This document shows, in pieces, positions 2,408 through 32,876 of a DNA stretch of 33,541 nt. The notes beneath the pieces were generated by a model, which ran no database searches, was not told where the DNA came from, and worked only from the letters and a program-made list of their open reading frames with translations. The translations under genes were made by a program, and so were the position numbers. Source of the stretch: a virus. Lineage: Duplodnaviria; Heunggongvirae; Uroviricota; Caudoviricetes. The stretch is taken from the IMG/VR virus record IMGVR_UViG_2627853869_000007; one strand, 5' to 3'. Within the stretch, counting starts at the first letter, position 1. Every line of letters begins with the position of its first letter.

Positions 2408-2473
2408 CCTGTTTACCTCTTTCTCAGGGAGTTTAGTCTCCAGGATTCCCGGGGCGGTTCAAATGACTCCAAC

Positions 2474-2977
2474 TTACTGATAGTGTTTTATGTTCAGATA
2501 ATGCCCGATGACCTTGTCATGCAGCTCCACCGATTTTGAGAACGACAGTGACTTCCGTCCCAGCCTTGCCAGATGTTGTCTCAGATTCAGATTATGTCGC
2601 TCAATGCGCTGAGTGTAACGCTTGCTGATAACGTGCAGCTTTCCCTTCAGGCGTGATTCATACAGCGGCCAGCCATCCGTCATCCATACCACGACCTCAA
2701 AGGCCGACAGCAGGCTCAGAAGACGCTCCAGTGTGGCCAGAGTGCGTTCACCGAAGACGTGCGCCACAACCGTCCTCCGTATCCTGTCATACGCGTAAAA
2801 CAGCCAGCGCTGACGTGATTTAGCACCGACGTAGCCCCACTGTTCGTCCATTTCAGCGCAGACAATCACATCACTGCCCGGTTGTATGCGCGAGGTTACC
2901 GACTGCGGCCTGAGTTTTTTAAGTGACGTAAAACCGTGTTGAGGCCAACGCCCATAATGCGTGCACTGGCGCGACAT
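2474..2977 (-). CDS. insB: IS1 transposase InsB
   Basis: 167-aa ORF ...[52 protein letters not shown]..., the IS1 InsB sequence. Confidence 0.9.
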
Positions 2978-3171
2978 CCGACGCCATTCATGGCCATATC
3001 AATGATTTTCTGGTGCGTACCGGGCTGAGAGGCGGTGTAAGTGAACTGTAGTTGCCATGTTTTACGGCAATGAGAGCAGAGATAGCGCTGATGTCCGGCA
3101 GTGCTTTTGCCGTTACGCACCACGCCTTCAGTAGCGGAGCAGGAAGGACATCTGATGGAAATGGAAGCCAC
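2896..3171 (-). CDS. insA: IS1 InsA
   Basis: 91-aa [43 protein letters not shown]..., the IS1 InsA zinc-finger protein; A6C frameshift motif TTAAAAAACTC present. Confidence 0.9.
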
Positions 3172-3235
3172 GCAAGCACCTTAAAATCACCATCATACAC
3201 TAAATCAGTAAGTTGGCAGCATTACCAAGCAAAAG

Positions 3236-15165: not shown

Positions 15166-15211
15166 GGCACAAACCTACAGCCTTGAATGAAGGCTTTCCC
15201 CGCCTGCGGTT

Positions 15212-15229
15212 TGTGTGGTTGTCGGTACA
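15212..15229. promoter_or_regulatory. Ogr-type late promoter element TGT-N12-ACA in the divergent P/O control region
   Basis: TGTGTGGTTGTCGGTACA between the divergent P (leftward) and O (rightward) genes. Confidence 0.5.
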
Positions 15230-15307
15230 AATACCGCGCATTGTTTCACTGCCCCTATCACCGCAACCATAAGGCTCCAGTAAGTTTTTTCTAACGGAGC
15301 ACGGCTC

Positions 15308-16141
15308 ATGACAGTGAAAGCAAAGCGTTTTCGCATCGGGGTGGAAGGTGCCACCACCGACGGACGCGAAATCCAGCGTGAATGGCTGGAACAGATGGCA
15401 GCCAGCTATAACCCGGCGGTGTATACCGCGCTGATTAACCTTGAGCACATCAAGTCTTATCTGCCGGACAGCACCTTTAACCGCTACGGCAAGGTGACGG
15501 CGCTGTTTGCTGAAGAAATCACGGAAGGTCCGCTGGCAGGCAAGATGGCGCTGTATGCTGACGTTGAGCCAACGGAGTCCCTGGTGGAACTGGTGAAAAA
15601 AGGCCAGAAATTATTCACCTTTATGGAAGTCAGCCCGAAGTTCGCTGATACGGGCAAAGCCTACCTAGTCGGCCTGGCTGCCACTGATGACCCTGCCAGT
15701 CTGGGCACTGAAATGCTGACATTCAGCGCCAGTGCAGCCCATAACCCGCTGGCAAACCGCAAGCAGAATCCCGCCAATCTCTTTACCGCCGCAGAGGAAA
15801 CGGTGATCGAACTGGAAGAAGTCCAGGACGACAAACCGTCCCTGTTTGCCCGCGTCACGGCGCTGTTTACCAAAAAAGAGCAGTCCGATGACGCCCGGTT
15901 CTCTGATGTGCATAAGGCCGTGGAGCTGGTCGCCACTGAGCAGCAGAACCTGAGCGCACGCACCGAAAAATCCCTGTCTGAGCAGGAAGAACGCCTGTCT
16001 GAGCTGGAGACTGCCCTGCAGGCACAGCAAACCGCCTTTAACGAACTGGTGGACAAGCTGAGTCATGAAGACAGCCGCCAGGACTACCGCCAGCGTGCAA
16101 CAGGCGGTAACGCCCCCGCTGACACTCTGACCAATTGCTGA
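15308..16141 (+). CDS. O: capsid scaffolding protein GpO
   Basis: 277-aa ORF ...RFRIGVEGATTDGREI...INLEHI...YLVGLAATDDPASLGTE...; P2 O-like, first gene of the rightward head operon. Confidence 0.85.
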   Translation: MTVKAKRFRIGVEGATTDGREIQREWLEQMAASYNPAVYTALINLEHIKSYLPDSTFNRYGKVTALFAEEITEGPLAGKMALYADVEPTESLVELVKKGQKLFTFMEVSPKFADTGKAYLVGLAATDDPASLGTEMLTFSASAAHNPLANRKQNPANLFTAAEETVIELEEVQDDKPSLFARVTALFTKKEQSDDARFSDVHKAVELVATEQQNLSARTEKSLSEQEERLSELETALQAQQTAFNELVDKLSHEDSRQDYRQRATGGNAPADTLTNC

Positions 16142-16157
16142 TGGAGCACAAAACCTG

Positions 16158-17216
16158 ATGAAGAAGAATACCCGCTTTGCTTTTAACGCTTACCTGCAGC
16201 AACTGGCGCGTCTGAACGGTGTGGCAGTTGAAGAACTGTCCAGCAAGTTCACCGTAGAGCCGTCCGTGCAGCAGACGCTGGAAGACCAGATCCAGCAGTC
16301 CGCCGCTTTCCTGACTCTGATTAACGTCACGCCAGTGACTGAGCAGTCCGGTCAGCTGCTGGGGTTGGGAGTTGGCAGCACCATTGCCGGAACCACTGAT
16401 ACCACTGCGAAAGAGCGTGAACCTGTCGATCCGACGCTGATGGTCGATGTGGAATATAAATGCGAGCAGACCAACTTTGACACGGTGCTGACCTACGCGA
16501 AGCTGGACCTGTGGGCGAAGTTTCAGGATTTTCAGGTGCGTATCCGTGACGCCATCGTGAAACGTCAGGCACTGGACCGCATCATGATCGGCTTTAATGG
16601 CGTGAAGCGTGCGAAAACCTCCAACCGTAGCGAAAACCCGCTGCTGCAGGATGTGAATAAAGGCTGGCTGCAGAAAATCCGTGAGGATGCACCGGATCAC
16701 GTCATGGGCAGCACCACCACGGGCGGTGAAACCACACCGGGCGCAGTGAAAGTCGGGAAAGGTGGCGAATATGCCAACCTGGACGCCGTGGTGATGGATG
16801 CCGTCAATGAGCTTATCGACGTGGTCTACCAGGACGATGACGATCTGGTGGTGATTTGCGGTCGTGAACTGCTGTCTGACAAGTATTTCCCGCTGGTCAA
16901 CAAAGAGCAGGAAAACAGTGAAAAACTGGCTGCCGATATGATCATCAGTCAGAAACGCATGGGTGGCCTGCAGGCCGTGCGTGCGCCGTTCTTCCCGCCG
17001 AATGCGCTGCTGATCACCCGTCTGGATAACCTGTCCATCTACTGGCAGGAAGACACCCGCCGCCGTTCAGTTATCGACAACCCGAAACGTGACCGGATTG
17101 AAAACTTTGAATCCGTTAACGAAGCCTATGTGGTTGAGGACTACCGCTGCGCCGCACTGGTGGAAAACATCCAGATTAGTGATTTCAGCGCCGCCGCAGC
17201 CGAAACCGGAGCGTAA
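16158..17216 (+). CDS. N: major capsid protein GpN
   Basis: 352-aa ORF ...TRFAFNAYLQQLARLNGV...KFTVEPSVQQTL...; P2 N-like. Confidence 0.9.
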   Translation: MKKNTRFAFNAYLQQLARLNGVAVEELSSKFTVEPSVQQTLEDQIQQSAAFLTLINVTPVTEQSGQLLGLGVGSTIAGTTDTTAKEREPVDPTLMVDVEYKCEQTNFDTVLTYAKLDLWAKFQDFQVRIRDAIVKRQALDRIMIGFNGVKRAKTSNRSENPLLQDVNKGWLQKIREDAPDHVMGSTTTGGETTPGAVKVGKGGEYANLDAVVMDAVNELIDVVYQDDDDLVVICGRELLSDKYFPLVNKEQENSEKLAADMIISQKRMGGLQAVRAPFFPPNALLITRLDNLSIYWQEDTRRRSVIDNPKRDRIENFESVNEAYVVEDYRCAALVENIQISDFSAAAAETGA

Positions 17217-17219
17217 TCC

Positions 17220-17870
17220 ATGAGCCTGAGTCCCGCACGGCAGCATCGCCTGCGCGTTCAGGCTGAACAGGCCGTCCGTGAGGGTGGCAGTGTTCGCCAC
17301 GCATCGGGCTATGACCTGATGCTGCTGCAACTGGCGGAAGACCGCCGCCGTCTCAAGGGCGTTCAGTCCACGGTCAAAAAAGCGGAAATCAAAGTGGAGC
17401 TGCTGCCGAAGTACGCCGCCTGGGCGGAGGGTGTCCTGGCTGCCGGAGGCGCTCAACAGGATGACGTGCTGATGTACGTGATGTTGTGGCGCATTGATGC
17501 CGGAGATTATGCCGGGGCGCTGGAGATCGGGCGTCATGCCCTGCGTCATGGATGGGTGATGCCGCTGGGCAACCGCAACGTGCAGACCGTGCTGACAGAG
17601 GAAATGGCAGATGCAGCGCAGAGCGCAATGCTTGCCGCCACCGGCTTTGATGCCGATCTGTTGCTGCAGACGCTGGAGCTGACAGACGGTCTGGATATGC
17701 CGGACCAGTCACGGGCACGTCTGCATAAAGCGATTGGCGCGGTCCTGAGTGAAAGCAATCCGGCTTCCGCCCTTAATCATCTCAACCATGCGTTACAGCT
17801 CGATCCCCGCTGTGGCGTGAAAAAAGACAAACAGCAGCTGGAGCGCAGACTGCGCAATGACAGCCGCTGA
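17220..17870 (+). CDS. M: terminase endonuclease (small) subunit GpM
   Basis: 216-aa ORF ...QDDVLMYVMLWRIDAGDYAGALEIGRHALRHG...; P2 M-like. Confidence 0.85.
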   Translation: MSLSPARQHRLRVQAEQAVREGGSVRHASGYDLMLLQLAEDRRRLKGVQSTVKKAEIKVELLPKYAAWAEGVLAAGGAQQDDVLMYVMLWRIDAGDYAGALEIGRHALRHGWVMPLGNRNVQTVLTEEMADAAQSAMLAATGFDADLLLQTLELTDGLDMPDQSRARLHKAIGAVLSESNPASALNHLNHALQLDPRCGVKKDKQQLERRLRNDSR

Positions 17871-17966
17871 CAGAACGTGCCCCCGCGCACGGGCGGCACG
17901 GGGTGGCGAAAGGCACAGCCACATCAAAACCCCGTCCACCGCCCTTTATTTCAGGAGAAAGCAGCA

Positions 17967-18430
17967 TGAAGTTTGTTGCGCCAGAACAGGCACCGGAACA
18001 GGCGGAAATCATTAGAAATACGCCGTTCTGGCCTGATGTGGACCTGTCGGAGTTTCGCAGTGTCATGCGCACTGACGGCACGGTGACGCAGCCGCGTTTA
18101 AAGCAGGTTGCACTGTCGGCAATTTCGGAGGTTAACGCAGAGCTGTATGAGTTTCGCAGACGCCAGCAGATGCTGGGGTATGCGTCGCTGGCTGAGGTTC
18201 CGGCGGAACAGCTGGACGGGAAAAGTGAGCGCATTCAGCACTATTTCAACGCGGTTTACTGCTGGGCTCGCGCCATGCTCAACGAACGTTTCCAGGACTA
18301 TGACGCCACGGCATCCGGTGCGAAGCGGGGCGAAGAACTGGCGGAAGCAAGCGGTGATTTGTGGCGTGACGCCCGCTGGGCCATCAGCCGGGTGCAGGAC
18401 GCGCCGCACTGCACAGTGGAGCTTATCTGA
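17967..18430 (+). CDS. L: head completion/stabilisation protein GpL
   Basis: ATG at 17967 preceded by AGGAGA; ...NTPFWPDVDL...NAELYEFRRRQ...DLWRDARWAISRVQDAPHCTVELI; P2 L-like. Confidence 0.8.
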
Positions 18431-18633
18431 TGAAAGTGCGTGCGCATCAGTATGACACGGTGGACGCGCTTTGCTGGCGTCATTACGGGCGCACGCAGGG
18501 TGTCACGGAGCAGGTACTGAAGGCAAATCCGGGGCTTGCCGAATACGGCCCCTTTTTACCTCACGGGCTGCAGGTGGAGCTGCCGGACATTCCGACCACC
18601 ACCACCGTGCAGACCGTCCAGCTATGGGACTGA
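18430..18633 (+). CDS. X: tail protein GpX
   Basis: 67-aa ORF at the P2 X position. Confidence 0.7.
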   Translation: MKVRAHQYDTVDALCWRHYGRTQGVTEQVLKANPGLAEYGPFLPHGLQVELPDIPTTTTVQTVQLWD

Positions 18634-18636
18634 ATT

Positions 18637-18852
18637 ATGACGCTTGAGCGAATCAGCGCCTTTATCACGTATTGCATCGCCGTCGTGCTGGCCTGGCTGG
18701 GCGATTTGTCCATCAAGGATGCCTCAACGCTGGGCGGCCTGATGATTGGTGTGCTGATGCTGGCTATCAACTGGTACTACAAACACAAAGCCTACCAGCT
18801 TCTGCGCGACGGGCAGATCTCGCGGGAGGACTATGAATCCATCAATCGTTAA
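18637..18852 (+). CDS. holin, two-TMD pinholin-like
   Basis: 71-aa ORF with two hydrophobic segments and charged C-terminus, immediately upstream of and overlapping the endolysin. Confidence 0.6.
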   Translation: MTLERISAFITYCIAVVLAWLGDLSIKDASTLGGLMIGVLMLAINWYYKHKAYQLLRDGQISREDYESINR

Positions 18853-19345
18853 ACGCTGCCTTGTCGGGGCCGTGCTGGCTATTGCTGCCACGCTGCCGGG
18901 TTTTCAGCAGCTTCACACCTCCGTGGAGGGACTGAAACTGATTGCCGATTACGAAGGTTGTCGTCTGCAGCCGTATCAGTGCAGCGCGGGTGTCTGGACC
19001 GACGGTATTGGTAATACGTCGGGCGTCATTCCCGGCAAAACCATTACGGAGCGACAGGCAGCAGAAGGGCTGATCTCCAACGTGCTGCGTGTGGAGCGGG
19101 CGCTGGAAAAGTGTGTGAAGCAACAGCCGCCGCAGAAGGTGTATGACGCTGCGGTGTCGTTTGCCTTCAACGTGGGTACGGGCAATGCCTGCAGTTCCAC
19201 GCTGGTGAAATTGCTCAATCAGCGGCGCTGGGCGGATGCGTGCCGACAGTTGCCGCGCTGGGTTTATGTGAAAGGTGTTTTTAATCAGGGGCTGGATAAC
19301 CGCCGTGCGCGGGAGATGGCCTGGTGTTTACAGGGAGCAAACTGA
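18833..19345 (+). CDS. endolysin, lysozyme-like, with N-terminal signal-anchor-release (SAR) type hydrophobic segment
   Basis: 170-aa ORF; N-terminal CLVGAVLAIAATLPG weakly hydrophobic Gly/Ala-rich segment followed by lysozyme-like region ...DYEGCRLQPYQCSAGVWTDGIGNT... Confidence 0.75.
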   Translation: MNPSIVKRCLVGAVLAIAATLPGFQQLHTSVEGLKLIADYEGCRLQPYQCSAGVWTDGIGNTSGVIPGKTITERQAAEGLISNVLRVERALEKCVKQQPPQKVYDAAVSFAFNVGTGNACSSTLVKLLNQRRWADACRQLPRWVYVKGVFNQGLDNRRAREMAWCLQGAN

Positions 19346-19346
19346 A

Positions 19347-19724
19347 ATGAAAAAGAAATTAATCAGCGGGCTGTTTCTGATGTTATGGATGGCGCTGTTA
19401 ATCGCAGCAATGGTGTATCCGCAGGGGATTTTTCCGGTACTGGCAGCGTCCGGCGTTTGGGTAGCCTGTTTACTGACATGGGCGGTAATTCCGGTAGCAC
19501 TGGCTTCGTTAATTAAGAATGGCCCGCTCTGGCAGGAGTTGAGGGCATCTTTACTGAAGACAATTACCCGAAAAGAAAACGTATTTATCAGCTGGGTGAT
19601 ACGATTGCTGATTGTCGTCAGTCTCGCCTGGACGGGGTGGGCCATTACCCTGGTCTTTTATCTGCTGACCGTTATTGCCTTCTGGATCACCCATAATCAG
19701 ATGGCGCAACAGGTAGCCGCATGA
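19347..19724 (+). CDS. LysA-like membrane protein (lysis accessory)
   Basis: ATG at 19347 after GGGAG; 125-aa protein with several hydrophobic helices; position as P2 lysA. Confidence 0.6.
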   Translation: MKKKLISGLFLMLWMALLIAAMVYPQGIFPVLAASGVWVACLLTWAVIPVALASLIKNGPLWQELRASLLKTITRKENVFISWVIRLLIVVSLAWTGWAITLVFYLLTVIAFWITHNQMAQQVAA

Positions 19725-20149
19725 ACCGGTTGCTGCTGGTTGTGCTGGCGTTATTATTGGCGGCGCTGGGCTGGCAGACGTGGCGGCTGGCTGATGCCAG
19801 CCAGACCATCAGCACGCAGGCAGACGAGCTGCAGAGCAAAAGCCAGGCACTGGCAAAGAGCAACAGCCAGCTTATCAGCCTGTCCATTCTGACTGAAACC
19901 AATAACCGGGAGCAGGCGCGGCTCTATGCCGAAGCAGAACAGACCAGTGTACTGCTGAGACAACGACAACGCCGGATTGAGGAACTGAAACGTGAGAACG
20001 AGGATTTACGTCGCTGGGCTGATACTCCTTTGCCTGCTGACATTATCCGGCTGCGGGAACGTCCGGCACTCACCGGAGGTGCAGCTTACCGTCAGTGGTT
20101 GTCCGCGAGTGACGCCGTGTCGGCTGGAGCAGGCAGCGCCGCGCACTAA
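19721..20149 (+). CDS. LysB, Rz-like i-spanin
   Basis: N-terminal TMD then coiled-coil Gln/Arg/Glu-rich periplasmic domain. Confidence 0.7.
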   Translation: MNRLLLVVLALLLAALGWQTWRLADASQTISTQADELQSKSQALAKSNSQLISLSILTETNNREQARLYAEAEQTSVLLRQRQRRIEELKRENEDLRRWADTPLPADIIRLRERPALTGGAAYRQWLSASDAVSAGAGSAAH

Positions 20150-20282
20150 CGGTGATCTGAATGCGTTGCTGGATGAAACGGAGGCCGCCTGGGCGGTCTG
20201 TGCAGACAAAGTGGACATGATTATTGCGTGTCAGGAGCGAAACAGTGAACAAACCACAATCCCTGCGCCACGCCCTCAATAA
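19992..20282 (+). CDS. LysC, Rz1-like o-spanin lipoprotein, out of frame across the lysB 3' end
   Basis: Signal peptide with lipobox LTLSGC; Pro-rich short mature part; starts inside lysB in a different frame. Confidence 0.65.
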   Translation: MRTRIYVAGLILLCLLTLSGCGNVRHSPEVQLTVSGCPRVTPCRLEQAAPRTNGDLNALLDETEAAWAVCADKVDMIIACQERNSEQTTIPAPRPQ

Positions 20283-20676
20283 AGCAGTGCCTTATGTCCG
20301 TAATAACCCGGACAAACTGCATCTGTTTGTGGATAACGGTTCGCTGGTTGCCTCCGGGGCTAGCTCCATGTCATGGGAGTACCGCTACACCCTGAACGTG
20401 GTGATTGAAGATTTCAGCGGCGACCAGAATCTGCTGATGGCCCCGGTTTTGCTGTGGCTGCGGGATAACCAGCCCGATGCGATCAATAACCCGGCGTTAC
20501 GGGAAAAGCTATTCACCTTTGAGGTGGATATTCTGCGCAACGATGTCTGTGATATCAGCCTTAACCTGCAACTGACGGAGCGTGTGCTGGTCAGCACTGA
20601 CGGCAGTGTGTCGAACGTTGAAGCGGTAGCGGAACCTGATGAACCTGAAGAAATGTGGACGGTGAAACGTGGCTGA
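20245..20676 (+). CDS. R: tail completion protein GpR
   Basis: ...LHLFVDNGSL...RYTLNVVIEDFSGDQNLLMAPVLLWLRDNQPD...; start probably GTG at 20245 after AGGAGCG. Confidence 0.8.
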   Translation: MNKPQSLRHALNKAVPYVRNNPDKLHLFVDNGSLVASGASSMSWEYRYTLNVVIEDFSGDQNLLMAPVLLWLRDNQPDAINNPALREKLFTFEVDILRNDVCDISLNLQLTERVLVSTDGSVSNVEAVAEPDEPEEMWTVKRG

Positions 20677-21112
20677 ATTGCAGAAGGTGGACGACTGGCT
20701 GAGTGCATTATTGGCGAATCTGGAGCCAGCCGCAAGAAGCCGCATGATGCGCCAGCTGGCGCAGGAACTGCGCCGGACACAGCAGCAGAACATCAGGATG
20801 CAGCGCAATCCTGATGGCAGCAGTTATGAGCCGCGCAGGGTAACAGCACGCAGCAAAAAGGGGTGCATCAAACGTCAGATGTTTACAAAGCTGCGCACCA
20901 CAAAATACCTGAAAACTGCAGCCAGCGCCGATTCTGCCAGCGTACAGTTTGAAGGTAGGGTGCAGCGCATTGCCCGTATTCACCATTACGGCTTGAGTGA
21001 TCGCGTCAGTCGAAAAGGTATTTATACCATCTATGCGAAAAGGCAGTTATTAGGTTTTAATGTCCAATCTATTGAGTTAATTGAAAGAATGTTCATTAAA
21101 AACCTAACTTGA
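20669..21112 (+). CDS. S: tail completion protein GpS (appears complete; 3' end AT-rich)
   Basis: 147-aa ORF ...MMRQLAQELRRTQQQNIRMQRNPDGS...IARIHHYGL...YAKRQLLGF...; P2 S-like through the C-terminus. Confidence 0.75.
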   Translation: MAELQKVDDWLSALLANLEPAARSRMMRQLAQELRRTQQQNIRMQRNPDGSSYEPRRVTARSKKGCIKRQMFTKLRTTKYLKTAASADSASVQFEGRVQRIARIHHYGLSDRVSRKGIYTIYAKRQLLGFNVQSIELIERMFIKNLT

Positions 21113-21190
21113 TTTTTATTTGTTTTCAATTGAGTGGTAATGCTGCCAACTTACTGATTTAGTGTATGATGGTGATTTTAAGGTGCTTGC

Positions 21191-21466
21191 GTGGCTTCCA
21201 TTTCCATCAGATGTCCTTCCTGCTCCGCTACTGAAGGCGTGGTGCGTAACGGCAAAAGCACTGCCGGACATCAGCGCTATCTCTGCTCTCATTGCCGTAA
21301 AACATGGCAACTACAGTTCACTTACACCGCCTCTCAGCCCGGTACGCACCAGAAAATCATTGATATGGCCATGAATGGCGTCGGATGTCGCGCCAGTGCA
21401 CGCATTATGGGCGTTGGCCTCAACACGGTTTTACGTCACTTAAAAAACTCAGGCCGCAGTCGGTAA
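21191..21466 (+). CDS. insA: IS1 InsA
   Basis: Identical 91-aa translation to copy A. Confidence 0.9.
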
Positions 21467-21888
21467 CCTCGCGCATACAACCGGGCAGTGATGTGATTGT
21501 CTGCGCTGAAATGGACGAACAGTGGGGCTACGTCGGTGCTAAATCACGTCAGCGCTGGCTGTTTTACGCGTATGACAGGATACGGAGGACGGTTGTGGCG
21601 CACGTCTTCGGTGAACGCACTCTGGCCACACTGGAGCGTCTTCTGAGCCTGCTGTCGGCCTTTGAGGTCGTGGTATGGATGACGGATGGCTGGCCGCTGT
21701 ATGAATCACGCCTGAAGGGAAAGCTGCACGTTATCAGCAAGCGTTACACTCAGCGCATTGAGCGACATAATCTGAATCTGAGACAACATCTGGCAAGGCT
21801 GGGACGGAAGTCACTGTCGTTCTCAAAATCGGTGGAGCTGCATGACAAGGTCATCGGGCATTATCTGAACATAAAACACTATCAGTAA
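21385..21888 (+). CDS. insB: IS1 InsB
   Basis: Identical 167-aa translation to copy A. Confidence 0.9.
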
Positions 21889-21903
21889 GTTGGAGTCATT
21901 ACC

Positions 21904-22002
21904 CACCCGACTTAACGCCGTGTTGGATTACATTGACGCGGTGGCGGCAACAGATACCAGCACCGCGCCGGATGTCATCTGGCCTGAACTGCCGGAGGCG
22001 TA
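21904..22002 (+). pseudogene. tail fiber assembly gene, 3' remnant (5' part removed by IS1)
   Basis: Frame from 21904 reads ...NAVLDYIDAVAATDTSTAPDVIWPELPEA*, a typical tail-fiber-assembly C-terminus; converges on and overlaps the 3' end of the opposite-strand tfa gene. Confidence 0.6.
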
Positions 22003-22412
22003 GGCCATTCAATATCTGGAGCACTGGAGGTATCAATCAGTTCCAGTGCGTCCAGATAATCCAGCCACAAATTATATTGCGCCAGTTCCTCACCTTTCAG
22101 ACGACCAATAGCGGCTTTACCGGGCCATTGTTTACTGTTCATGTATTCGTTGGCCTGATTAAGCAATAATTGCCTTTCTGATTCTGCCTGTTGAATAAGT
22201 TCTTCATATGATGGTGGAGGTATTAGTGCCCATGTGGGTAATCCATTTTTTCCTGCAACACGAATTTTGTCATCTGGGGGCGTATTGATTGCAAATTCAT
22301 TATAAACATCATCACTGACAGCCAGAGCATCATCTGGCCATGAATTTGCATTAATGTAATCATCCTTAAGCGCAGGATTCACAAAAATGTTTAAAGATGG
22401 ACTATAAAACAT
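21975..22412 (-). CDS. tail fiber assembly protein (Tfa/U-type chaperone) of the invertible segment
   Basis: 145-aa ORF ...NSKQWPGKAAIGRLKGEELAQYNLWLDYLDALELIDTSSAPDIEWP... Confidence 0.8.
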   Translation of the reverse strand: MFYSPSLNIFVNPALKDDYINANSWPDDALAVSDDVYNEFAINTPPDDKIRVAGKNGLPTWALIPPPSYEELIQQAESERQLLLNQANEYMNSKQWPGKAAIGRLKGEELAQYNLWLDYLDALELIDTSSAPDIEWPTPPAVQAR

Positions 22413-22413
22413 A

Positions 22414-22803
22414 TTAAACCCCTATAGCGATATAACGACCTAATACAGCATTTGCAGCAGTCGCTATGCTTGAAAAACCGCGGAACTGATTTGATGTAAT
22501 TGCAGAAGCCGACAGGATTCCTGCGCCTGAAGGTGTATGCCCCACATGACTAACTATCATCCCATAACATGCTGACGGAAAGGCAAAAGGAAAATCATTA
22601 AGATATCCTGCATCTTCACCACCAGACCCACCAAATCTCGCCTGCCCCCACTGAATAATCAGTGTTCTCCGGGAACCTGAAATAATTAACGGAATCGTTA
22701 CATACCCATTCAGGCCAATGACACCCGATGCAGTGCCAGCCAGAGATAATTCTCCCAAACCAACGTTTAAGAAAATGCAGAGATAATGGCTAACTGGCAT
22801 CAT
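22414..22803 (-). CDS. tail fibre C-terminal variable segment (alternative cassette; constant part absent)
   Basis: 129-aa ORF immediately upstream of tfa on the same strand; its 5' end contains the recombination site, so the N-terminal residues are read-in sequence. Confidence 0.6.
   Translation of the reverse strand: MMPVSHYLCIFLNVGLGELSLAGTASGVIGLNGYVTIPLIISGSRRTLIIQWGQARFGGSGGEDAGYLNDFPFAFPSACYGMIVSHVGHTPSGAGILSASAITSNQFRGFSSIATAANAVLGRYIAIGV
22750..22775. promoter_or_regulatory. serine-invertase crossover site (gix/hix/pix-like)
   Basis: TTCTCCCAAACCAACGTTTAAGAAAA fits the 26-bp pattern TTCTC..AAACC...GTTT..GA.AA of Hin/Gin/Pin inversion sites; lies inside the tail-fibre segment about 55 bp before the invertase start. 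Confidence 0.5.
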
Positions 22804-22829
22804 CCCCGGTTTTTATTCAGGGGATTGAT

Positions 22830-23397
22830 CATGCTTATTGGCTATGTACGCGTGTCAACAAATGACCAGAACACCGATTTGCAACGTAATGCACTGAACT
22901 GCGCGGGATGTGAGCGGATTTTTGAGGATAAAATCAGTGGCACTAAGCCCGACAGACCGGGGCTTAAAAAACTGCTCAGGACACTATCGGCAGGAGACAC
23001 GCTGGTTGTCTGGAAGCTGGACAGACTGGGACGCAGTATGCGGCATCTTGTTACGCTGATAGAAGAGTTGCGCCAGCGTGGTGTGAATTTCCGAAGCCTG
23101 ACTGACAGTATTGATACCAGTACCCCAATGGGCCGTTTCTTTTTTCACGTCATGGGGGCTCTGGCTGAAATGGAACGTGAACTGATAGTTGAACGTACCA
23201 GAGCAGGGCTGGCTGCAGCTCGTGCCAAAGGCAGAGTAGGTGGACGCCGTCCTAAGTTGACCACCGAACAGTGGGCACAGATTGGACGTTTACTCGAGGC
23301 CGGAGAATCAAGACAGCGTATTGCACTGATTTTTGATGTGGGCGTTTCTACCATTTATAGAAAATTTCCGGCGAATGAGAGCAATGAATCGCCCTGA
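22830..23397 (+). CDS. serine site-specific DNA invertase (Hin/Gin/Pin/Cin family)
   Basis: MLIGYVRVSTNDQNTDLQRNAL...TLVVWKLDRLGRSMRHL... with catalytic Ser in VRVSTNDQ and C-terminal HTH. Confidence 0.9.
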
Positions 23398-23445
23398 GTC
23401 AGTATTATTTTGATTTTTCCTGTAAGCGGACAAATACCGTCATTT

Positions 23446-23463
23446 TGTGTGAATAACGACACA
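23446..23463. promoter_or_regulatory. Ogr-type late promoter element TGT-N12-ACA upstream of FI
   Basis: TGTGTGAATAACGACACA, about 75-95 bp upstream of the FI start codon. Confidence 0.5.
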
Positions 23464-23539
23464 ACTGCGCTTAGCTGTTTGTCAGGCACAATCACTTCAA
23501 CATAGGGCGAAGCCTAATCCAATCAGGAGGTTCGCCACT

Positions 23540-24712
23540 ATGGCTCAGGATTACCACCACGGGGTGCGCGTTGTTGAAGTCAACGAAGGCACCCGATCCA
23601 TTACCACGGTGAGCACCGCCATCGTGGGTATGGTCTGCACGGGCGATGATGCCGATGCAAAAATGTTTCCTCTTAATAAACCTGTGCTGATCACTGATGT
23701 GCTGACCGCCAGCGGTAAAGCGGGTGAGTCTGGCACGCTGGCCCGTTCGCTGGATGCCATCGCTGACCAGGCAAAACCCGTGACCGTTGTTGTGCGTGTG
23801 CCGCAGGGTGAAACGGAAGAAGAAACCACAACCAATATCATTGGCGCAGTGACCGCCGAGGGTAAAAAAACAGGTATGAAAGCCCTGTTATCTGCCCAGT
23901 CACAGCTCGGCGTTAAACCGCGCATTCTCGGCGTGCCAGGTCACGACACGAAGGCGGTAGCTACTGAGTTGCTGAGCGTGGCGCAAAGCCTGCGTGGATT
24001 TGCTTACCTGTCAGCGTATGGTTGCAAGACGGTGCAGGAAGCAATCACTTACCGTGAAAACTTCAGTCAGCGTGAAGGAATGCTGATCTGGCCCGACTTT
24101 ACTGGCTGGGACACGGTGCTGAATGCCGAAGCAACGGCTTATGCCACCGCCCGTGCGCTCGGTCTGCGCGCTAAAATTGATGAGCAGACCGGATGGCACA
24201 AAAGCCTGTCCAACGTGGGCGTGAACGGTGTCACCGGAATTTCTGCTGATGTGTTCTGGGATCTGCAGGACCCGGCAACCGATGCAGGTCTGCTTAACCA
24301 GAACGATATCACCACGCTTATCCGCAAAGACGGTTTCCGCTTCTGGGGTTCCCGCTGTCTGAGCGATGATCCGCTCTTTGCCTTCGAAAACTACACCCGC
24401 ACGGCGCAGGTGCTGATGGACACGATGGCAGAAGCGCACATGTGGGCGGTGGACAAACCGCTGAACCCGTCGCTGGCCCGCGACATTATCGAAGGTATCC
24501 GCGCCAAAATGCGTAGCCTGGTCAGTCAGGGCTATCTCATTGGTGGTGATTGCTGGCTGGACGAGTCGGTGAACGATAAAGACACGCTGAAAGCCGGGAA
24601 ACTCACCATCGATTACGACTACACGCCAGTGCCGCCACTTGAAAACCTGATGCTGCGTCAGCGCATCACCGATCAGTACCTGGTGAATTTCTCCAGCCAG
24701 GTCAGCGCGTAA
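23540..24712 (+). CDS. FI: tail sheath protein FI
   Basis: 390-aa [38 protein letters not shown]... P2 FI-like. Confidence 0.9.
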
Positions 24713-24721
24713 GGGGACAAC

Positions 24722-25237
24722 ATGGCTTTACCACGCAAATTAAAACACCTGAACCTGTTTAACGACGGGAACAACTGGCAGGGGATCGTTGAGTCGCTGA
24801 CGCTGCCGAAATTCACCCGCAAATATGAGAAGTATCGCGGCGGCGGTATGCCCGGAGCGGTGGATGTGGATCTGGGACTGGATGACAGTGCACTGGATAC
24901 AGAATTTTCCATTGGTGGTACTGAACTGCTGCTGTTTAAGCAGATGGGCAAAGCCACGGTGGATGGCATCCAGCTGCGCTTTACCGGCTCTATTCAGCGT
25001 GATGATACCGGGGAAGTGCAGGCCGTGGAGCTTGTGGTGCGTGGACGTCACAAAGAAGTAGATTCCGGCGAGTGGAAGACGGGCGAAAGCAACACTACCA
25101 AAGTGACCAGTACCAACAGCTACGCGAAGCTGACCATCAATGGTGAGGTGCTCTATGAAGTGGACCTGATCAACATGGTGGAAATTGTGGACGGTGTGGA
25201 CCTGATGGAAGCGCACCGCAACGCCCTCGGCCTCTGA
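24722..25237 (+). CDS. FII: tail tube protein FII
   Basis: 171-aa ORF MALPRKLKHLNLFNDGNNWQG... P2 FII-like. Confidence 0.9.
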   Translation: MALPRKLKHLNLFNDGNNWQGIVESLTLPKFTRKYEKYRGGGMPGAVDVDLGLDDSALDTEFSIGGTELLLFKQMGKATVDGIQLRFTGSIQRDDTGEVQAVELVVRGRHKEVDSGEWKTGESNTTKVTSTNSYAKLTINGEVLYEVDLINMVEIVDGVDLMEAHRNALGL

Positions 25238-25291
25238 TGTATCTGAACGGCGCGGAATGCCGCGCCAGAACCTAATTTACAGGACAACAAA

Positions 25292-25594
25292 ATGAGCGAT
25301 AAGCAGACTGAAAAGACCATTCAACTGGATACTCCCATCATGCGCGGTAAAACAGAAATTACCGAAATTGTGTTGCGTAAACCGCAGTCCGGTGCGCTGC
25401 GCGGCACACGCCTGCAGGCCATTATGGATATGGATGTGAACGCGATGATGACCGTGATCCCCCGCATCTCCAGTCCGGCACTGACTGCACAGGAAATTGC
25501 AGAGATGGACCCGGCAGATCTCACTGCCATGTCGGTTGAGGTTGTCACTTTTTTGTTGAAGAAGTCGGTGCTTGCCGGTTTACCGACAGCCTGA
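25292..25594 (+). CDS. E: tail assembly chaperone GpE
   Basis: 100-aa ORF preceding the tape-measure gene; contains the slippery heptamer T-TTT-TTG. Confidence 0.8.
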   Translation: MSDKQTEKTIQLDTPIMRGKTEITEIVLRKPQSGALRGTRLQAIMDMDVNAMMTVIPRISSPALTAQEIAEMDPADLTAMSVEVVTFLLKKSVLAGLPTA

Positions 25595-25728
25595 CGGTTG
25601 ACGATCTGGTGGCTGATATCGCCACCATCTTTCACTGGCCGCCATCCGTTACTGACGTTATGCCGCTGACCGAAGTGCTGGAATGGCGGGATAAAGCGAT
25701 TCAGAGAAGCGGGGCCAGCCATGAGTGA
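25292..25728 (+). CDS. GpE+E' fusion produced by programmed -1 frameshift at T-TTT-TTG (25549-25555)
   Basis: From 25555 the -1 frame is open for 57 codons to the TGA at 25726-25728, which overlaps the T start codon. Confidence 0.6.
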
Positions 25729-28700
25729 CAATAACCTGCGTCTGCAGGTGATTCTTAATGCGGTTGACAAACTCACCCGCCCATTTCGATCCGCGCAGGC
25801 CAGTTCAAGAGAACTGGCTGCTGCTGTCAAAAAATCCCGCGATGCAATAAAGCAGCTTGATCAGGCCGGGAGCAGTCTGGACAGCTTCCGAAAGCTGCAG
25901 GCAGAAAATCAGAAATTAGGCGACAGGCTGAACTATGCCCGCCAGCGTGCAAATTTGCTCAGTCAGGAACTGGGAGCGATGGGGCCGCCTTCGCAACGTC
26001 AGGTTGTTGCTCTGGGCCGTCAACGGCTGGCTGTTCAGCGCCTAGAAGAACGCCAGAAAAAGCTGCAGCAGCAGACGGCGCTTGTGCGTGCAGAACTTTA
26101 TCGTGCTGGTATTTCAGCTAATGATGGCGCCAGTGCGACGGCCCGCATTACCCGTGAAACGATGCGTTATAACAGGCAGCTTTCTGAGCAGGAAGCGAGG
26201 TTACGACGTGTCGGGGAGCAACAGCGAAAAATGCACGCCGCCCGGGGGGCTTACGCCAGGCGTCTTGAGGTAAGGGATCGTATTGCAGGTGCCGGAGCCA
26301 CCACCACGGCTGCAGGGCTGGCAATGGGCGCACCAGTGATGGCGGCAGTAAAAAGCTATACCAGCATGGAAGATGCCATGAAAGGTGTGGCAAAGCAGGT
26401 CAATGGTCTGCGTGACGATAATGGCAACCGCACTGCGCGTTTTTACGAAATGCAGGGTGCCATCAAGGCTGCCAGCGAACAGTTGCCGATGGAAAACGGT
26501 GCTGTGGACTTCGCCGCACTGGTTGAAGGTGGTGCGCGCATGAACGTCGCAAACCCTGACGACAGCTGGGAAGACCAGAAACGTGACCTGCTGGCCTTCG
26601 CCAGCACGGCGGCAAAGGCGGCAACAGCCTTTGAACTGCCAGCGGATGAACTGTCAGAAAGTCTGGGGAAAATCGCCCAGCTCTACAAAATCCCTACCCG
26701 CAATATTGAGCAGCTCGGTGATGCGCTGAACTATCTGGATGATAACGCCATGTCGAAAGGGGCGGACATCATTGATGTCATGCAACGCCTGGGCGGTGTG
26801 GCTGACCGTCTGGATTATCGTAAAGCGGCGGCGCTGGGTTCCACCTTCCTGACACTCGGCGCTGCGCCTGAGGTTGCAGCCAGTGCAGCAAACGCGATGG
26901 TGCGTGAATTGTCCATTGCCACCATGCAAAGCAAGAGTTTCTTTGAAGGGATGAATCTGCTGAAACTCAATCCAGAAGTGATTGAAAAGCAGATGACGAA
27001 GGATGCGATGGGAACTATCCAGCGGGTGCTGGAGAAGGTGAATGCGCTGCCACAGGATAAGCGCCTGTCTGCCATGACCATGTTGTTTGGTAAAGAGTTT
27101 GGCGATGACGCAGCGAAACTGGCAAACAACCTGCCGGAACTTCAGCGCCAGTTAAAACTGACTGCGGGCAATGATGCGCTCGGTTCCATGCAGAAAGAAT
27201 CCGACATCAACAAGGATTCACTTTCTGCTCAGTGGTTGCTGGTCAAAACCGGAGCACAGAACACCTTCAGCAGCCTGGGGGAAACGCTGCGCCAGCCGCT
27301 GATGGATATTCTGTACACGGTGAAAAGCGTCACGGGGGCGTTGCGTCGCTGGGTGGAAGCTAACCCGGAACTGACGGGCACTCTGATGAAAGTAGCCGCT
27401 GTGGTAGCTGCCGTTACCGTGGGCCTCGGCACCTTAGCGGTGGCGCTGGCTGCAGTGCTGGGGCCGCTGGCAGTCATCCGTCTGGGATTCTCTGTGCTGG
27501 GTATCAAAACGTTACCTTCCGTTACGGCAACAGTAACCCGAACCAGCAACGCGTTGTCCTGGCTGGCTGGCGCACCACTGGCACTGCTGCGACGCGGGCT
27601 TGCTTCATCGGGCAACGCTGCAGGTTTACTTACTGCGCCGTTGTCGTCTTTGCGCCGCACGGCATCACTGACGGGAAATGTCCTGAAAACTGTAGCAGGT
27701 GCGCCGGTTGCACTTTTGCGGTCTGGATTATCCGGTTTACGTGCGGTTGCTGTGATGTTTATGAATCCACTGGCGGTACTACGCGGCGGACTGGCTGCCA
27801 CAGGCACGGTGCTGCGTATGCTCGCATCCGGTCCACTGGCGATGCTGCGCGTTGCCCTGTATGCCGTCTCTGGTCTGTTAGGTGCTCTGCTCAGTCTGAT
27901 AGGTCTTGTGGTTACTGCACTGGCGGGTGTGGCGCTGGTTGTCTGGAAATACTGGCAGCCCATCACCGCATTTCTCGGTGGCGTGGTGGAAGGATTCAAA
28001 GCGGCGGCAGGTCCTGTCAGTGCCGCGTTCGAACCGCTTAAGCCTGTGTTCCAGTGGATTGGCGACAAAGTACAGGCGCTGTGGGGCTGGTTTACTGATC
28101 TGCTGACGCCCGTTAAGTCGACCTCTGCCGAACTGCAGAGTGCAGCGGCAATGGGGCGACGATTCGGGGAGGCTCTGGCGGAAGGGCTGAATATGGTCAT
28201 GCATCCGCTGGACTCCCTGAAATCCGGCGTTTCCTGGTTGCTGGAGAAACTTGGCATTGTCAGTAAAGAGGCCGCAAAGGCGAAACTGCCGGAAAGCGTG
28301 ACGCGTCAGCAACCTGCGACGGTGAATGCAGACGGTAAAGTGATGATGCCATCGGGTGGTTTTCCGTCATGGGGATATGGCTTTGCGGGGATGTATGACA
28401 GCGGCGGGTATATCCCGCGCGGGCAGTTTGGCATCGTCGGTGAAAACGGGCCGGAAATTGTTAACGGCCCGGCAAATGTGACCAGCCGGAGAAATACAGC
28501 TGCACTGGCTGCCGTTGTTGCCGGAATGATGGGTGTTGCTGCTACGCCAGCAGAGCTTCCACCGTTGCACCCTTTGGCACTTCCCGCGAAAGGCGGTGAA
28601 GCGATGGTGAGTCGTGCAGCCACTGTGCCGCCCGTTCAACGGATTGAGGCACCGATGCAGATCATCATTCAAACGCAGCCAGGACAAAGTGCGCAGGATA

Positions 28701-28798
28701 TTGCGCGGGAGGTGGCCCGCCAGCTTGATGAACGTGAACGCAGGCTGAAGGCAAAAGCCAGGAGTAACTACAGCGATCAGGGGGGATACGACGCATGA
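25721..28798 (+). CDS. T: tail tape measure protein GpT
   Basis: 1025-aa ORF with coiled-coil N-terminus and Ala/Gly/Leu-rich hydrophobic repeats. Confidence 0.85.
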   Translation: MSDNNLRLQVILNAVDKLTRPFRSAQASSRELAAAVKKSRDAIKQLDQAGSSLDSFRKLQAENQKLGDRLNYARQRANLLSQELGAMGPPSQRQVVALGRQRLAVQRLEERQKKLQQQTALVRAELYRAGISANDGASATARITRETMRYNRQLSEQEARLRRVGEQQRKMHAARGAYARRLEVRDRIAGAGATTTAAGLAMGAPVMAAVKSYTSMEDAMKGVAKQVNGLRDDNGNRTARFYEMQGAIKAASEQLPMENGAVDFAALVEGGARMNVANPDDSWEDQKRDLLAFASTAAKAATAFELPADELSESLGKIAQLYKIPTRNIEQLGDALNYLDDNAMSKGADIIDVMQRLGGVADRLDYRKAAALGSTFLTLGAAPEVAASAANAMVRELSIATMQSKSFFEGMNLLKLNPEVIEKQMTKDAMGTIQRVLEKVNALPQDKRLSAMTMLFGKEFGDDAAKLANNLPELQRQLKLTAGNDALGSMQKESDINKDSLSAQWLLVKTGAQNTFSSLGETLRQPLMDILYTVKSVTGALRRWVEANPELTGTLMKVAAVVAAVTVGLGTLAVALAAVLGPLAVIRLGFSVLGIKTLPSVTATVTRTSNALSWLAGAPLALLRRGLASSGNAAGLLTAPLSSLRRTASLTGNVLKTVAGAPVALLRSGLSGLRAVAVMFMNPLAVLRGGLAATGTVLRMLASGPLAMLRVALYAVSGLLGALLSLIGLVVTALAGVALVVWKYWQPITAFLGGVVEGFKAAAGPVSAAFEPLKPVFQWIGDKVQALWGWFTDLLTPVKSTSAELQSAAAMGRRFGEALAEGLNMVMHPLDSLKSGVSWLLEKLGIVSKEAAKAKLPESVTRQQPATVNADGKVMMPSGGFPSWGYGFAGMYDSGGYIPRGQFGIVGENGPEIVNGPANVTSRRNTAALAAVVAGMMGVAATPAELPPLHPLALPAKGGEAMVSRAATVPPVQRIEAPMQIIIQTQPGQSAQDIAREVARQLDERERRLKAKARSNYSDQGGYDA

Positions 28799-29280
28799 TG
28801 ATGGTGCTGGGATTGTACGTGTTTATGCTGCGCACCGTGCCGTATCAGGAGCTGCAGTATCAACGCAGCTGGCGACATGCGGCAAACAGCCGGGTAAACC
28901 GACGCCCGTCAACGCAGTTTCTGGGACCGGACAACGACATGCTGACGCTTTCTGGTGTTCTTATGCCGGAGGTAACGGGCGGCAGGCTGTCGTTGCTGGC
29001 TCTGGAGCAGATGGCAGAACAGGGAAAAGCATGGCCCCTGATTGAAGGCAGCGGCACGATTTACGGCATGTATGTGATTGAGGGACTGAATCAGACTAAA
29101 ACGGAGTTTTTCCGCGACGGTATGCCGCGCCGGATTGAGTTCACCCTGTCGCTAAAACGCGTGGATGAATCCCTGTCCGATATGTTCGGTGATCTCAGTG
29201 CGCAACTGAATAATCTGCAGGGAACGGCAACATCTGCCTTAAGCGATATCAGTAAAACGGTGGGAGGGCTGCTGTCGTGA
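28795..29280 (+). CDS. U: tail protein GpU
   Basis: 161-aa ORF at the P2 U position, overlapping T and D. Confidence 0.8.
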   Translation: MMMVLGLYVFMLRTVPYQELQYQRSWRHAANSRVNRRPSTQFLGPDNDMLTLSGVLMPEVTGGRLSLLALEQMAEQGKAWPLIEGSGTIYGMYVIEGLNQTKTEFFRDGMPRRIEFTLSLKRVDESLSDMFGDLSAQLNNLQGTATSALSDISKTVGGLLS

Positions 29281-30377: not shown

Positions 30378-30467
30378 TTCTTCGCAATGGAGAACTTTTA
30401 AGTTTGCAAAGTGGAATAATGCGGTATCATTATTGTGAATTTAGCAAAAATGGGGAGAGCTCGAAAA

Positions 30468-30686
30468 ATGATGATTTGCCCACTGTGTGGAAGTGCCGCC
30501 CATACTCGCAGCAGTTTTCAGGTATCTTCATTGACCAAAGAGCGTTACAACCAGTGCCAGAACATTAACTGCAGCCATACTTTTGTTACCCATGAAACTT
30601 TTGTTCGTTCGATTGCAACGCCAAAAGAGTCAAATCCGGTTCAGCCGCATCCAATGAAATCAGGACAGGTGGCGCTCTCTCTTTGA
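30468..30686 (+). CDS. ogr: Ogr-type zinc-finger late transcription activator
   Basis: MMICPLCGSAAHTRSS...YNQCQNINCSHTFVTHE... with the Cys-x2-Cys...Cys-x4-Cys Ogr/Delta pattern. Confidence 0.8.
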   Translation: MMICPLCGSAAHTRSSFQVSSLTKERYNQCQNINCSHTFVTHETFVRSIATPKESNPVQPHPMKSGQVALSL

Positions 30687-30760
30687 CGCTGCCGCCATTT
30701 TGTCGCCATCGTTAAAAAACAGTGCTTCTAACATCATGATTTTAAAAGGCATAAATTTCA

Positions 30761-30809
30761 GACAACAAAAAACCCATCAACCTTGAACCGAAATGGCGGG
30801 GTTGATGGG
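30761..30809 (-). terminator. rho-independent terminator (minus strand) in the prophage-host junction region
   Basis: On the minus strand, 10-bp stem CCCATCAACC/GGTTGATGGG followed by TTTTTTGTTGTC. Confidence 0.45.
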
Positions 30810-30921
30810 CTCCACAAAATGGGGACATCAAAGAAAAGCAGTGGCACTAATTAAGACTGATGCCCTGCGGAAAAGTTCTGCGGTTGTGCAAAAAAATTTC
30901 ATTTTCAGGGCAACTTCAGTT

Positions 30922-32607: not shown

Positions 32608-32876
32608 GGAGGCTAACTTCTTGTTTACTAGTAAGCTGTTGAAAGAAATGGTAATTTACGATAATGTTTTTTACCAGAATTCAGGGCGCAGATTCATTCA
32701 GCGCACCTAAACGATAGTAAAGTAACAATATATTTTACTAGTGTAATCACATTAGGTATCAACGGCTATATGAATTGCGTTGGCCTATATTAGCATGGAA
32801 TGCGAAGCGGCTTTATCTTACTGAACGCCACACTGGCGAAAAATGTGTTCGATAGACGCAGTGTCAGGAGGAACGA

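Follow-up and report, generated by a model that had tools for sequence, protein, structure and literature searches.

What can an intact DNA invertase still act on when it lies beside a single crossover site, with an insertion sequence in the place of baseplate and tail-fibre genes, and how did it come to be left there? This question is raised by a 33,541-nt stretch of prophage DNA (hereafter, the window), which is nearly identical in sequence to Shigella boydii Sb227. The invertase gene occupies positions 22831..23397 on the plus strand and encodes an intact protein of 188 aa, combining a Resolvase domain (PF00239; E = 2.8e-53, residues 3-135) with a C-terminal HTH_7 domain (PF02796; E = 1.4e-15, residues 138-181). 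Its Ser9 (Gin numbering) falls in the invariant YVRVSTNDQ block common to PinE and Gin, and the protein is 100% identical to the invertase of an intact prophage in E. coli UPEC-245U (NZ_CP049845.1; L001), 85% identical to PinE and 74% identical to Gin, with the Gin structure 3UJ3 as its best solved relative (E = 2.4e-92 over 1-184). The resolvase domain with its serine, the C-terminal HTH_7 and a 26-bp site of the 12+2+12 form beside the gene place it among the Din-family serine DNA invertases of the Pin/Gin type, in agreement with the first-pass annotation, which had called an intact invertase of the Hin/Gin/Pin type. The pinB invertase of the B segment described from 'S. boydii' (Tominaga 1991) was considered as its identity and rejected: bix is gix-like, the GA core shared by gix and bix is incompatible with the AA core found here, and the source was later assigned to S. 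sonnei (PMC3241671).

The surviving, invertase-proximal crossover site is of the Din/pix type and spans positions 22750..22775. Its 26 bp read TTCTCCCAAACCAACGTTTAAGAAAA, that is, TTCTCCCAAACC-AA-CGTTTAAGAAAA, with the core at 22762-22763. It matches pixR of e14 at 25/26 positions with the same AA core (published site table, PMC3241671), with no such site expected by chance, and the invertase ATG follows it at a distance of 55 bp, which is also the spacing in e14; the relative position is the same in Mu. The sequence had been described as crossover-site-like, and its similarity to pixR, its core and its spacing from the invertase bear this out. In L001 and in two further relatives (L027 and L031), the same site is the right-hand member of an inverted pair that brackets a segment, with inner half-sites that form perfect inverted repeats and AA/TT cores. 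No such bracketing pair exists in the window, where a search for a second 26-bp site at up to 3 and up to 8 mismatches found none. The partner site (L001 10994-11019) lies inside the fibre gene H, which is deleted here; within the 33.5-kb window, the claim that a single site is left is therefore correct.

Between the insertion sequence and this site lie the remaining tail-fibre cassettes. The first is a 3' stub of a TfaE-like tail-fibre assembly gene, tfa (21904..22003, plus strand), which comprises the last 32 codons and the stop, in frame from 21905, is still recognized as Caudo_TAP (E = 3.5e-8) and matches residues 169-200 of the 200-aa Tfa of L001 at 100% identity; it derives from the cassette that is expressed in the present orientation. 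The silent cassette on the minus strand has kept an intact alternative assembly gene, tfa' (21975..22412; 145 aa, Caudo_TAP E = 8e-33), whose protein is 100% identical to that of L001, and Hv' (22414..22761; Gp53-like_C E = 1e-12), the alternative variable C-terminal segment of H, with about 115 codons and a stop. As annotated, the Hv' ORF is 128-129 aa long and extends to 22800/22803, over the crossover site and into spacer DNA. Hv' has no constant part to join, and a simple scan revealed no consensus promoter upstream of it; what is annotated here as a 'gp53-like domain-containing protein' is a promoterless alternative C-terminus of the deleted fibre gene, not a free-standing gene. The joined form can be seen in the flipped isomer L031, where Hv' is the C-terminus of a 465-aa H. 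L001 and L031 are 99.95-100% identical, but the stretch bounded exactly by the two 26-bp sites is inverted in one relative to the other, which swaps a 513-aa H and a 200-aa Tfa for a 465-aa H and a 145-aa Tfa. Judged from the sequences of these isomers, the tail-fibre switch of the relatives is real and its sites recombine; which invertase acts is not told by the isomers.

The extent of the loss became apparent by alignment to L001, which occupies the same ybjL site and is 99.8% identical on both flanks. Window positions 14681-21135 correspond to L001 1-6455 without gaps (11 mismatches) and positions 21903-33541 to L001 12001-23639, again without gaps (16 mismatches), leaving a clean deletion of 5,545 bp (L001 6456-12000) with an IS1 element, copy B, exactly in the gap. 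According to the annotation of L001, the gap accounts for a cargo gene foreign to P2 (DUF5677), for V, W, J, I and H, and for 168 codons at the 5' end of tfa (about five-sixths of the gene); the left crossover site falls within the same stretch. The L001 proteins for DUF5677, V, W, J, I and H had no tblastn match anywhere in the window; that the module was lost and not moved holds for these 33.5 kb. That IS1 stands in place of the V-W-J-I-H baseplate and fibre module, as proposed in the first-pass annotation, is thus supported both by the alignment to a related P2-like prophage with an inversion system and by the tblastn result. The elements listed there were all found at or near their given positions, but the list of losses was incomplete, as the DUF5677 gene and most of tfa have been lost too.

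Gene S (20669..21112, plus strand; tail completion/virion morphogenesis) is the last late gene ahead of the deletion; it is intact (147 aa; Phage_tail_S E = 5e-37; TIGR01635) and its protein is 98% identical to S of L001. It had been described as followed directly by IS1, but a 23-bp remnant (21113..21135) intervenes, consisting of the 3-bp spacer between S and DUF5677 and of 20 bp from the 3' end of the deleted DUF5677 gene, which ran on the opposite strand, in gapless identity to L001 6433-6455. The last 9 bp of this remnant (21127-21135) are CAATTGAGT, the left copy of an IS1 target duplication that is intact in the progenitor. IS1 copy B itself (21136..21903, plus strand) is complete at 768 bp, with 23-bp terminal inverted repeats (IRL 21136-21158 and IRR 21881-21903; GGTAATGCTGCCAACTTACTGAT versus ATCAGTAAGTTGGAGTCATTACC, 20/23 complementary), insA (21191-21466), the insB' frame (21385-21888) and the A6C motif AAAAAAC (21442-21448), at which a -1 frameshift joins insA and insB'. 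Gene calling on an identical IS1 in another genome (L004) gives a 232-aa InsAB' that carries the Pfam domains Zn_ribbon_InsA, HTH_Tnp_IS1 and DDE_Tnp_IS1. Copy B is not flanked by a 9-bp target duplication, its flanks (caattgagt versus cacccgact) matching at 5/9 positions, as is expected following an adjacent deletion.

A second IS1, copy A (2462..3226, minus strand), is located at the int/CI end of the same prophage, 17.9 kb away and inverted relative to copy B. The two are identical except that the IRR of A stops 3 terminal bases short (GGT is missing), at the point where an IS3-family element adjoins. A 6-bp extension of the identity past IRL given by a repeat finder (21130-21135 versus 3227-3232) proved to be a chance match at 4/6 positions (ttgagt versus ttgctt). 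IS copies are sites of heavy rearrangement in Shigella chromosomes, and an inverted pair in one window invites the explanation that the module was moved elsewhere by IS1-mediated inversion or translocation, or that an assembly collapsed across the IS1 repeats. We consider this very improbable. Both flanks of copy B are arranged and oriented as in the IS-free relative, which excludes an inversion of the DNA lying between the IS1 copies, and copy A is flanked by int/CI DNA and another IS and not by any of the missing module; inversion between the two copies was therefore rejected as the cause. Moreover, identical S-IS1-stub junctions occur in Sb227 (CP000036.1), CP162080.1, CP182558.1 and CP026731.1, and so in four or more complete assemblies obtained independently, one of them (Sb227) of the Sanger era, which argues against an assembly artefact. 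Two short-read contigs (L009 and L010) end exactly at the stub, as expected of a real IS1 junction. Neither junction was found in 5,426 complete E. coli genomes, in which the matches at >=80% coverage were AT-rich chance flanks of only 82-87% identity. The IS1 junctions mark the lineage of S. boydii Sb227-type strains.

The state that preceded the deletion is preserved in L027 (GenBank CP026766.1). At the same chromosomal site, this genome carries a 768-bp IS1 that is 100% identical to copy B and has the same left junction, is flanked on both sides by CAATTGAGT as a perfect 9-bp duplication, and is followed by the full DUF5677-V-W-J-I-H-tfa module with both crossover sites. Because L027 shares the left junction and retains the duplication and the whole module, the window is best read as an L027-type insertion with a later rightward deletion. 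At the window IS1 the left junction is as in L027 and the right flank changes from L001 6447 to L001 12001, precisely at the IRR terminus; the retained IS, the one old junction, the new flank, the lost duplication and the start of the deletion at the IS end together form the signature of an IS-promoted adjacent deletion. In two further genome types (L005/L024 and L008) the IRR|stub junction is kept and more DNA has been lost leftward, from the IRL end, indicating that the same IS1 promoted deletions repeatedly. On the basis of L005 and L008, the IRR|stub junction could be taken for the ancestral insertion point with deletion proceeding leftward, an order that is overturned by the insertion beside S, with its duplication, in L027. 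The structure of L027 instead gives the order as insertion, rightward deletion and, in some sister strains, leftward deletions, making the locus a fully reconstructable case of one IS1 dismantling a Shigella prophage.

In the very probable history that we propose, IS1 first inserted by conventional transposition 14-23 bp downstream of gene S, into the 3' end of the opposite-strand cargo gene, generating the 9-bp duplication CAATTGAGT. A second, IS1-associated event then removed the DNA from the IRR end to a point inside tfa, namely 5,545 bp of phage DNA and the right copy of the duplication. We infer the chemistry of this event, for which the most likely mechanism is intramolecular transposition, in the form of an adjacent deletion promoted by IS1. 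An alternative that we regard as possible, if somewhat doubtful, is RecA-dependent recombination between two direct IS1 copies, one at S/DUF5677 and a second, now lost, in tfa: recombination and transposition would yield the same product (one IS1, no duplication, flanks otherwise unchanged), IS1 is abundant in these genomes, and E. coli G5 carries a simple IS1 insertion in the same tfa gene, at another position. However, an IS1 at L001 12000/12001 with an intact 5' tfa flank was found in none of the 5,426 complete E. coli genomes or the fetched Shigella loci, and the two further one-ended deletions from the other end of the same IS1 follow the classical pattern of IS1-promoted adjacent deletion. 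The remnants of the invertible segment (tfa', Hv', the invertase-proximal site and the invertase) are all sequence-identical to a working system.

Inversion by Hin and Gin requires two sites and an enhancer in cis, within one supercoiled domain. With one site, no inversion would be expected at this locus and the fibre cassette should not be expressible, so that the local switch appears to be a relic; the orphan 'recombinase family protein' annotated here is explained by this partial loss of the switch. The invertase protein is probably still active, in which case it would be limited to a role in trans, with pairs of AA-core Din sites at other genomic loci as substrates; we infer that no other substrates are present. 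Din-family invertase genes contain a Fis-dependent recombinational enhancer in their 5' part. Positions 21903-24600 have 0 mismatches to L001, whose segment is found in both orientations among relatives, and any recombinational enhancer in this region is therefore unchanged. A simple scan found no sigma-70 consensus promoter upstream of the invertase, a negative that carries no information; by analogy, the gene would be expressed as in the identical region of functional relatives.

The intactness of the invertase might be taken as a sign that the gene and its lone site are retained as a functional module, acting in trans on, for example, an e14-type P segment, or by pairing of the lone site with a distant one. 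Din invertases are interchangeable (PMC12529663), the protein is intact and 85% identical to PinE, and the site is 1 base off pixR. Nevertheless, this reading is unlikely. The remnant is only ~0.15% divergent from L001, from which ~0.85 changes are expected in the 567 bp of the gene and P(0) is ~0.43, so that its intactness is uninformative, and a second site is absent from the 33.5-kb window. Intactness here reflects a recent deletion, not selection. That the orphan invertase is in use at present, inverting an e14-type or other AA-core Din segment in trans or flipping a large region between the lone site and a distant one, strikes us as quite unlikely; if it were true, the phenotype of the trans-acting enzyme could resemble the PinQ/StfE2 anti-phage effect of E. 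coli K-12.

Decay is also seen elsewhere in the prophage. Only the last 66 codons of int are left, an IS911-like element has taken the place of the Dam-to-CII region, and the portal gene contains an internal stop (12803-12805). A functional P2/186-like prophage would have complete int, early, head, baseplate and tail-fibre sets; here, V, W, J, I and H are missing, and neither tail production nor host-range switching is possible. The window is thus very probably a dead P2/186-like prophage, extending from int/rcdA to ogr/ybjL in an S. boydii Sb227-type chromosome, in which an IS1 insertion and then an IS1-associated deletion left a relic of the local switch. The loss of the module is ordinary IS-driven prophage decay, every component of the locus from S to the invertase is of a known kind, and the finding carries little weight beyond annotation.

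Among known systems, the e14 P-pin system of E. coli K-12 (pixL/pixR, pinE, stfP/tfaP/tfaE/stfE) has the same layout, with Hc, site, Hv-tfa, tfa'-Hv', site and invertase in this order, and is also similar in sequence, its TfaE being 87% identical to the parent Tfa of the stub. Both prophages are defective, but e14 keeps both sites and still inverts, whereas the window has lost the Hc-side site, the constant part of the fibre and the expressed cassette, and its host phage is P2/186-like rather than e14. Prophages of the P2/186-like group (UPEC-245U, NZ_CP049845.1, and JAKLOE010000001.1) carry the identical invertase, right site, tfa' and Hv' between H and the sheath gene FI; where those prophages have both sites and occur in both orientations, only half of the segment is left in the window. 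A 26-bp dix-type site and an invertase just outside the segment are also features of Mu G-gin and P1 C-cin, which differ in their fibre genes. Parallels to the present condition are offered by PinQ (Qin) and PinR (Rac) of E. coli K-12, orphan serine invertases in cryptic prophages that lie by fibre remnants with no complete local segment. The P segment of e14 can be inverted by any of PinQ, PinR and PinE, and the H segment of Salmonella by Fin from the P2-like prophage Fels-2 (PMC12529663). Trans action on e14 has been demonstrated for PinQ and PinR, which share only 38% identity with PinE (PMC12529663), whereas the window invertase is a close Pin/Gin relative for which a trans role would be an extrapolation. 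Finally, in classical IS1-promoted adjacent deletions (gal/Tn9) and in IS decay in Shigella, as in the window, the IS is kept and the duplication lost, with one progenitor junction and one new flank; the nested deletions that extend in either direction from this IS1 among sister strains follow the same pattern. We detected no difference in mechanism from these classical IS1 deletions, and what is notable about the present one is only which genes went.

The prophage in the 33.5-kb window is P2/186-like, with ybjL-ybjM adjoining its right end (D, ogr) and the left end of the window starting within the integrase gene. It is 99.98% identical across 17.8 kb to CP000036.1, the genome of Shigella boydii serotype 4 strain Sb227 (PMC8767353), and 100% identical across 11.6 kb to another Shigella-type assembly. 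The closest intact relative was the prophage of E. coli UPEC-245U (NZ_CP049845.1; loci L001 and L003), which occupies the same chromosomal site.

Alignment to this relative, a P2-like prophage with an inversion system, revealed a clean gap of 5,545 bp (L001 6456-12000; right junction ambiguous by one base) with an IS1 copy, IS1 B, in its place. The left block (14681-21135) matches L001 1-6455 gaplessly with 11 mismatches, and the right block (21903-33541) matches L001 12001-23639 with 16, none of them in 21903-24600. IS1 B itself is complete (21136-21903; 768 bp, 23-bp terminal inverted repeats, insA/insB’, A6C motif at 21442-21448). The absent DNA carries, in the relative, an opposite-strand DUF5677 gene, the baseplate genes V, W, J and I, the 513-aa fibre gene H and the first 168 codons of tfa, a TfaE-like assembly gene encoding 200 aa. 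No tblastn match to the DUF5677, V, W, J, I or H proteins was found elsewhere in the window, supporting the first-pass annotation, which had held that the baseplate genes and the constant part of the fibre were lost. All the elements it listed are present, except that the intact gene S (20669-21112) is not followed directly by IS1: 23 bp (21113-21135) separate them, consisting of the S/DUF5677 spacer and the final 20 bp of the cargo gene. Beyond IS1 B, a stub of tfa (its final 32 codons, 21905-22003) is followed by tfa’, intact on the opposite strand (21975-22412), and by Hv’, a variable fibre C-terminus of gp53-like type (22414-22761; the ORF extends to about 22800); the 26-bp crossover site (22750-22775) and the invertase (22831-23397) come next. 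An assembly artefact is argued against by identical window-type junctions in 4 complete genomes. Of the 11 mismatches in the 6.4-kb left flank, 5 cluster in the 3’ half of S (20812-20996), where they alter three amino acids; no mismatch occurs in the 2.7 kb right of IS1 B.

IS1 B is not flanked by a 9-bp duplication (caattgagt vs cacccgact). CP026766.1 (L017/L027) was identified through its invertase protein. Its prophage insertion site likewise adjoins ybjL, and an IS1 matching IS1 B at 100% identity shares the left junction (...TTTTCAATTGAGT|GGTAATGC); the right side of that IS1 (CAATTGAGT|TAGATATAG...) completes a perfect 9-bp target duplication. Beyond this IS1 the DUF5677-V-W-J-I-H-tfa-tfa’-Hv’-invertase region is complete, with both crossover sites; H carries a point nonsense mutation. 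CP026766.1 represents the simple-insertion progenitor of the window state. Compared with it, the deletion begins exactly at the terminus of the right inverted repeat (IRR) and stops in tfa, a pattern that most likely marks an adjacent deletion promoted by IS1. IS1 would have inserted beside S, in DUF5677, with a 9-bp duplication, and would subsequently have promoted an adjacent deletion from its IRR terminus into tfa. Recombination between IS1 B and a second direct copy in tfa would yield the same product, but is less likely: a two-IS1 intermediate was not found, and the right junction was absent from 5,426 complete E. coli genomes.

The decay began with an IS1 insertion into the S/V intergenic position, a slot whose cargo varies (L001 6436-7455; L029 3723-4538): L001, L027 and L031 carry DUF5677 there, L029 a TIR_2-domain protein and E. 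coli G5 a pair of hypothetical genes, and the slot is empty in L026 and L028. In E. coli G5 (NZ_CP060065.1; L002 7607-8986), a different IS1 variant (91% identical) has independently made a simple insertion at another position in the tfa of a related prophage, with both tfa halves kept; the module has therefore been hit recurrently by IS1.

Two other genomes retain the IRR-stub junction of the window with additional DNA lost leftwards from the left inverted repeat (IRL): IS1 is joined to window position 14321, in the terminase gene, in L005/L024, and to the int-CI spacer in L008 (CP160651.1). Since these deletions and that of the window share their IS1, a single copy has generated at least three deletions within the lineage. 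In L008 (4375-5416) the IRL of this IS1 is joined to L003 12045, and in the window (3226-3227) that of another copy, IS1 A, to L003 12044; the two junctions are immediately adjacent and do not overlap by 9 bp, which could reflect a hot spot for IS1 targeting within the AT-rich int-CI spacer, or a deletion that ran leftwards and halted 9 bp outside IS1 A.

The left prophage end (1-3226) is an IS pile-up and has lost ~1 kb of int (L003 12045-13082): the final 66 codons of that gene (1-194) are followed by a partial IS911-like element (195-1150; 956 bp), an entire IS3-family element whose ends are IS629-like (1151-2461) and IS1 A (2462-3226), missing the terminal GGT of its IRR. The partial element is 100% identical to a complete, inverted 1,249-bp copy (4569-5817), which occupies the place of L003 8868-10702 (the Dam 5’ end, TraR, DUF2732, DUF5347, Fil and the 3’ two-thirds of CII). 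The portal gene Q (12368-13402, minus strand) is full length, with an internal stop codon (12803-12805) splitting it into 199-aa and 133-aa ORFs. The prophage is thus dead several times over. Between the replication region and Q (9747-12261) lies an intact cargo pair, a 549-aa AAA_15/AAA_21 ATPase and a 293-aa HNH endonuclease, matching the PADLOC candidate system PDC-M01A/B and, more weakly, Septu PtuA; the pair, at the hotspot usual for P2, is likely an anti-phage system.

The surviving site matches published pixR (site table in PMC3241671) at 25/26 positions, AA core included, and its distance from the invertase start equals that in e14 and Mu. The 188-aa invertase is intact as first described, with catalytic Ser9 and an HTH_7 domain (85% identity to PinE, 74% to Gin), and the cis sequences are identical to those of a flipping relative. 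The partner site, already suspected missing, falls in the deleted DNA on the H side, and the 33.5-kb window contains no other at up to 8 mismatches. Because Din invertases require two sites and an enhancer in cis, we infer that local inversion is impossible here; the tfa’/Hv’ cassette, with no constant part to join, would be silent. If expressed, the invertase might act in trans only, as precedented by PinQ, PinR and PinE, each of which inverts the e14 P segment, and by Fels-2 Fin, which inverts the Salmonella H segment (PMC12529663). With the window diverging by ~0.15% from the intact relative, the invertase gene would be expected to carry ~0.85 substitutions (P(0) ~0.43, worked out by hand from the mismatch counts of the window-L001 alignment), so its intact reading frame says little. 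At least 26 public contigs carry the identical invertase sequence, as do 2,070 index blocks in the collection. Invertase, site, IS1 and deletion mechanism are all of well-described kinds, and the locus is already annotated in public genomes; the finding, which supports the first-pass interpretation, amounts to ordinary decay of a prophage driven by IS elements, whose evolutionary steps can be tidily reconstructed.

E. coli CP148297.1 (L030 8535-10567) has this 188-aa invertase and right site in another context, near ssrA/smpB, with an e14-type left site (CTCTCGAAAACCTTGGTTTGGGAGAA), a shorter segment of ~1.4 kb, a Mu Gp48-like gene and an IS3-family element. In L001, the right site (TTCTCCCAAACCAACGTTTAAGAAAA; 12848-12873) lies 1,828 bp from an inverted left site within H (TTCTCACATACCTTGGTTTGGGAGAA; 10994-11019), with inner half-sites forming perfect inverted repeats and TT/AA cores. 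JAKLOE010000001.1 (L021/L031) is 99.95-100% identical to L001, yet has exactly the segment between the sites inverted: H is 465 aa with a gp53-like C-terminus, followed by a 145-aa Tfa, and the silent cassette comprises a Collar-type C-terminus and the 200-aa Tfa. As these near-identical genomes carry the segment in both orientations and the window’s invertase at 100% identity, the comparison points to a working tail-fibre host-range switch on a P2/186-like phage, of the same kind as those of e14, Mu and P1.
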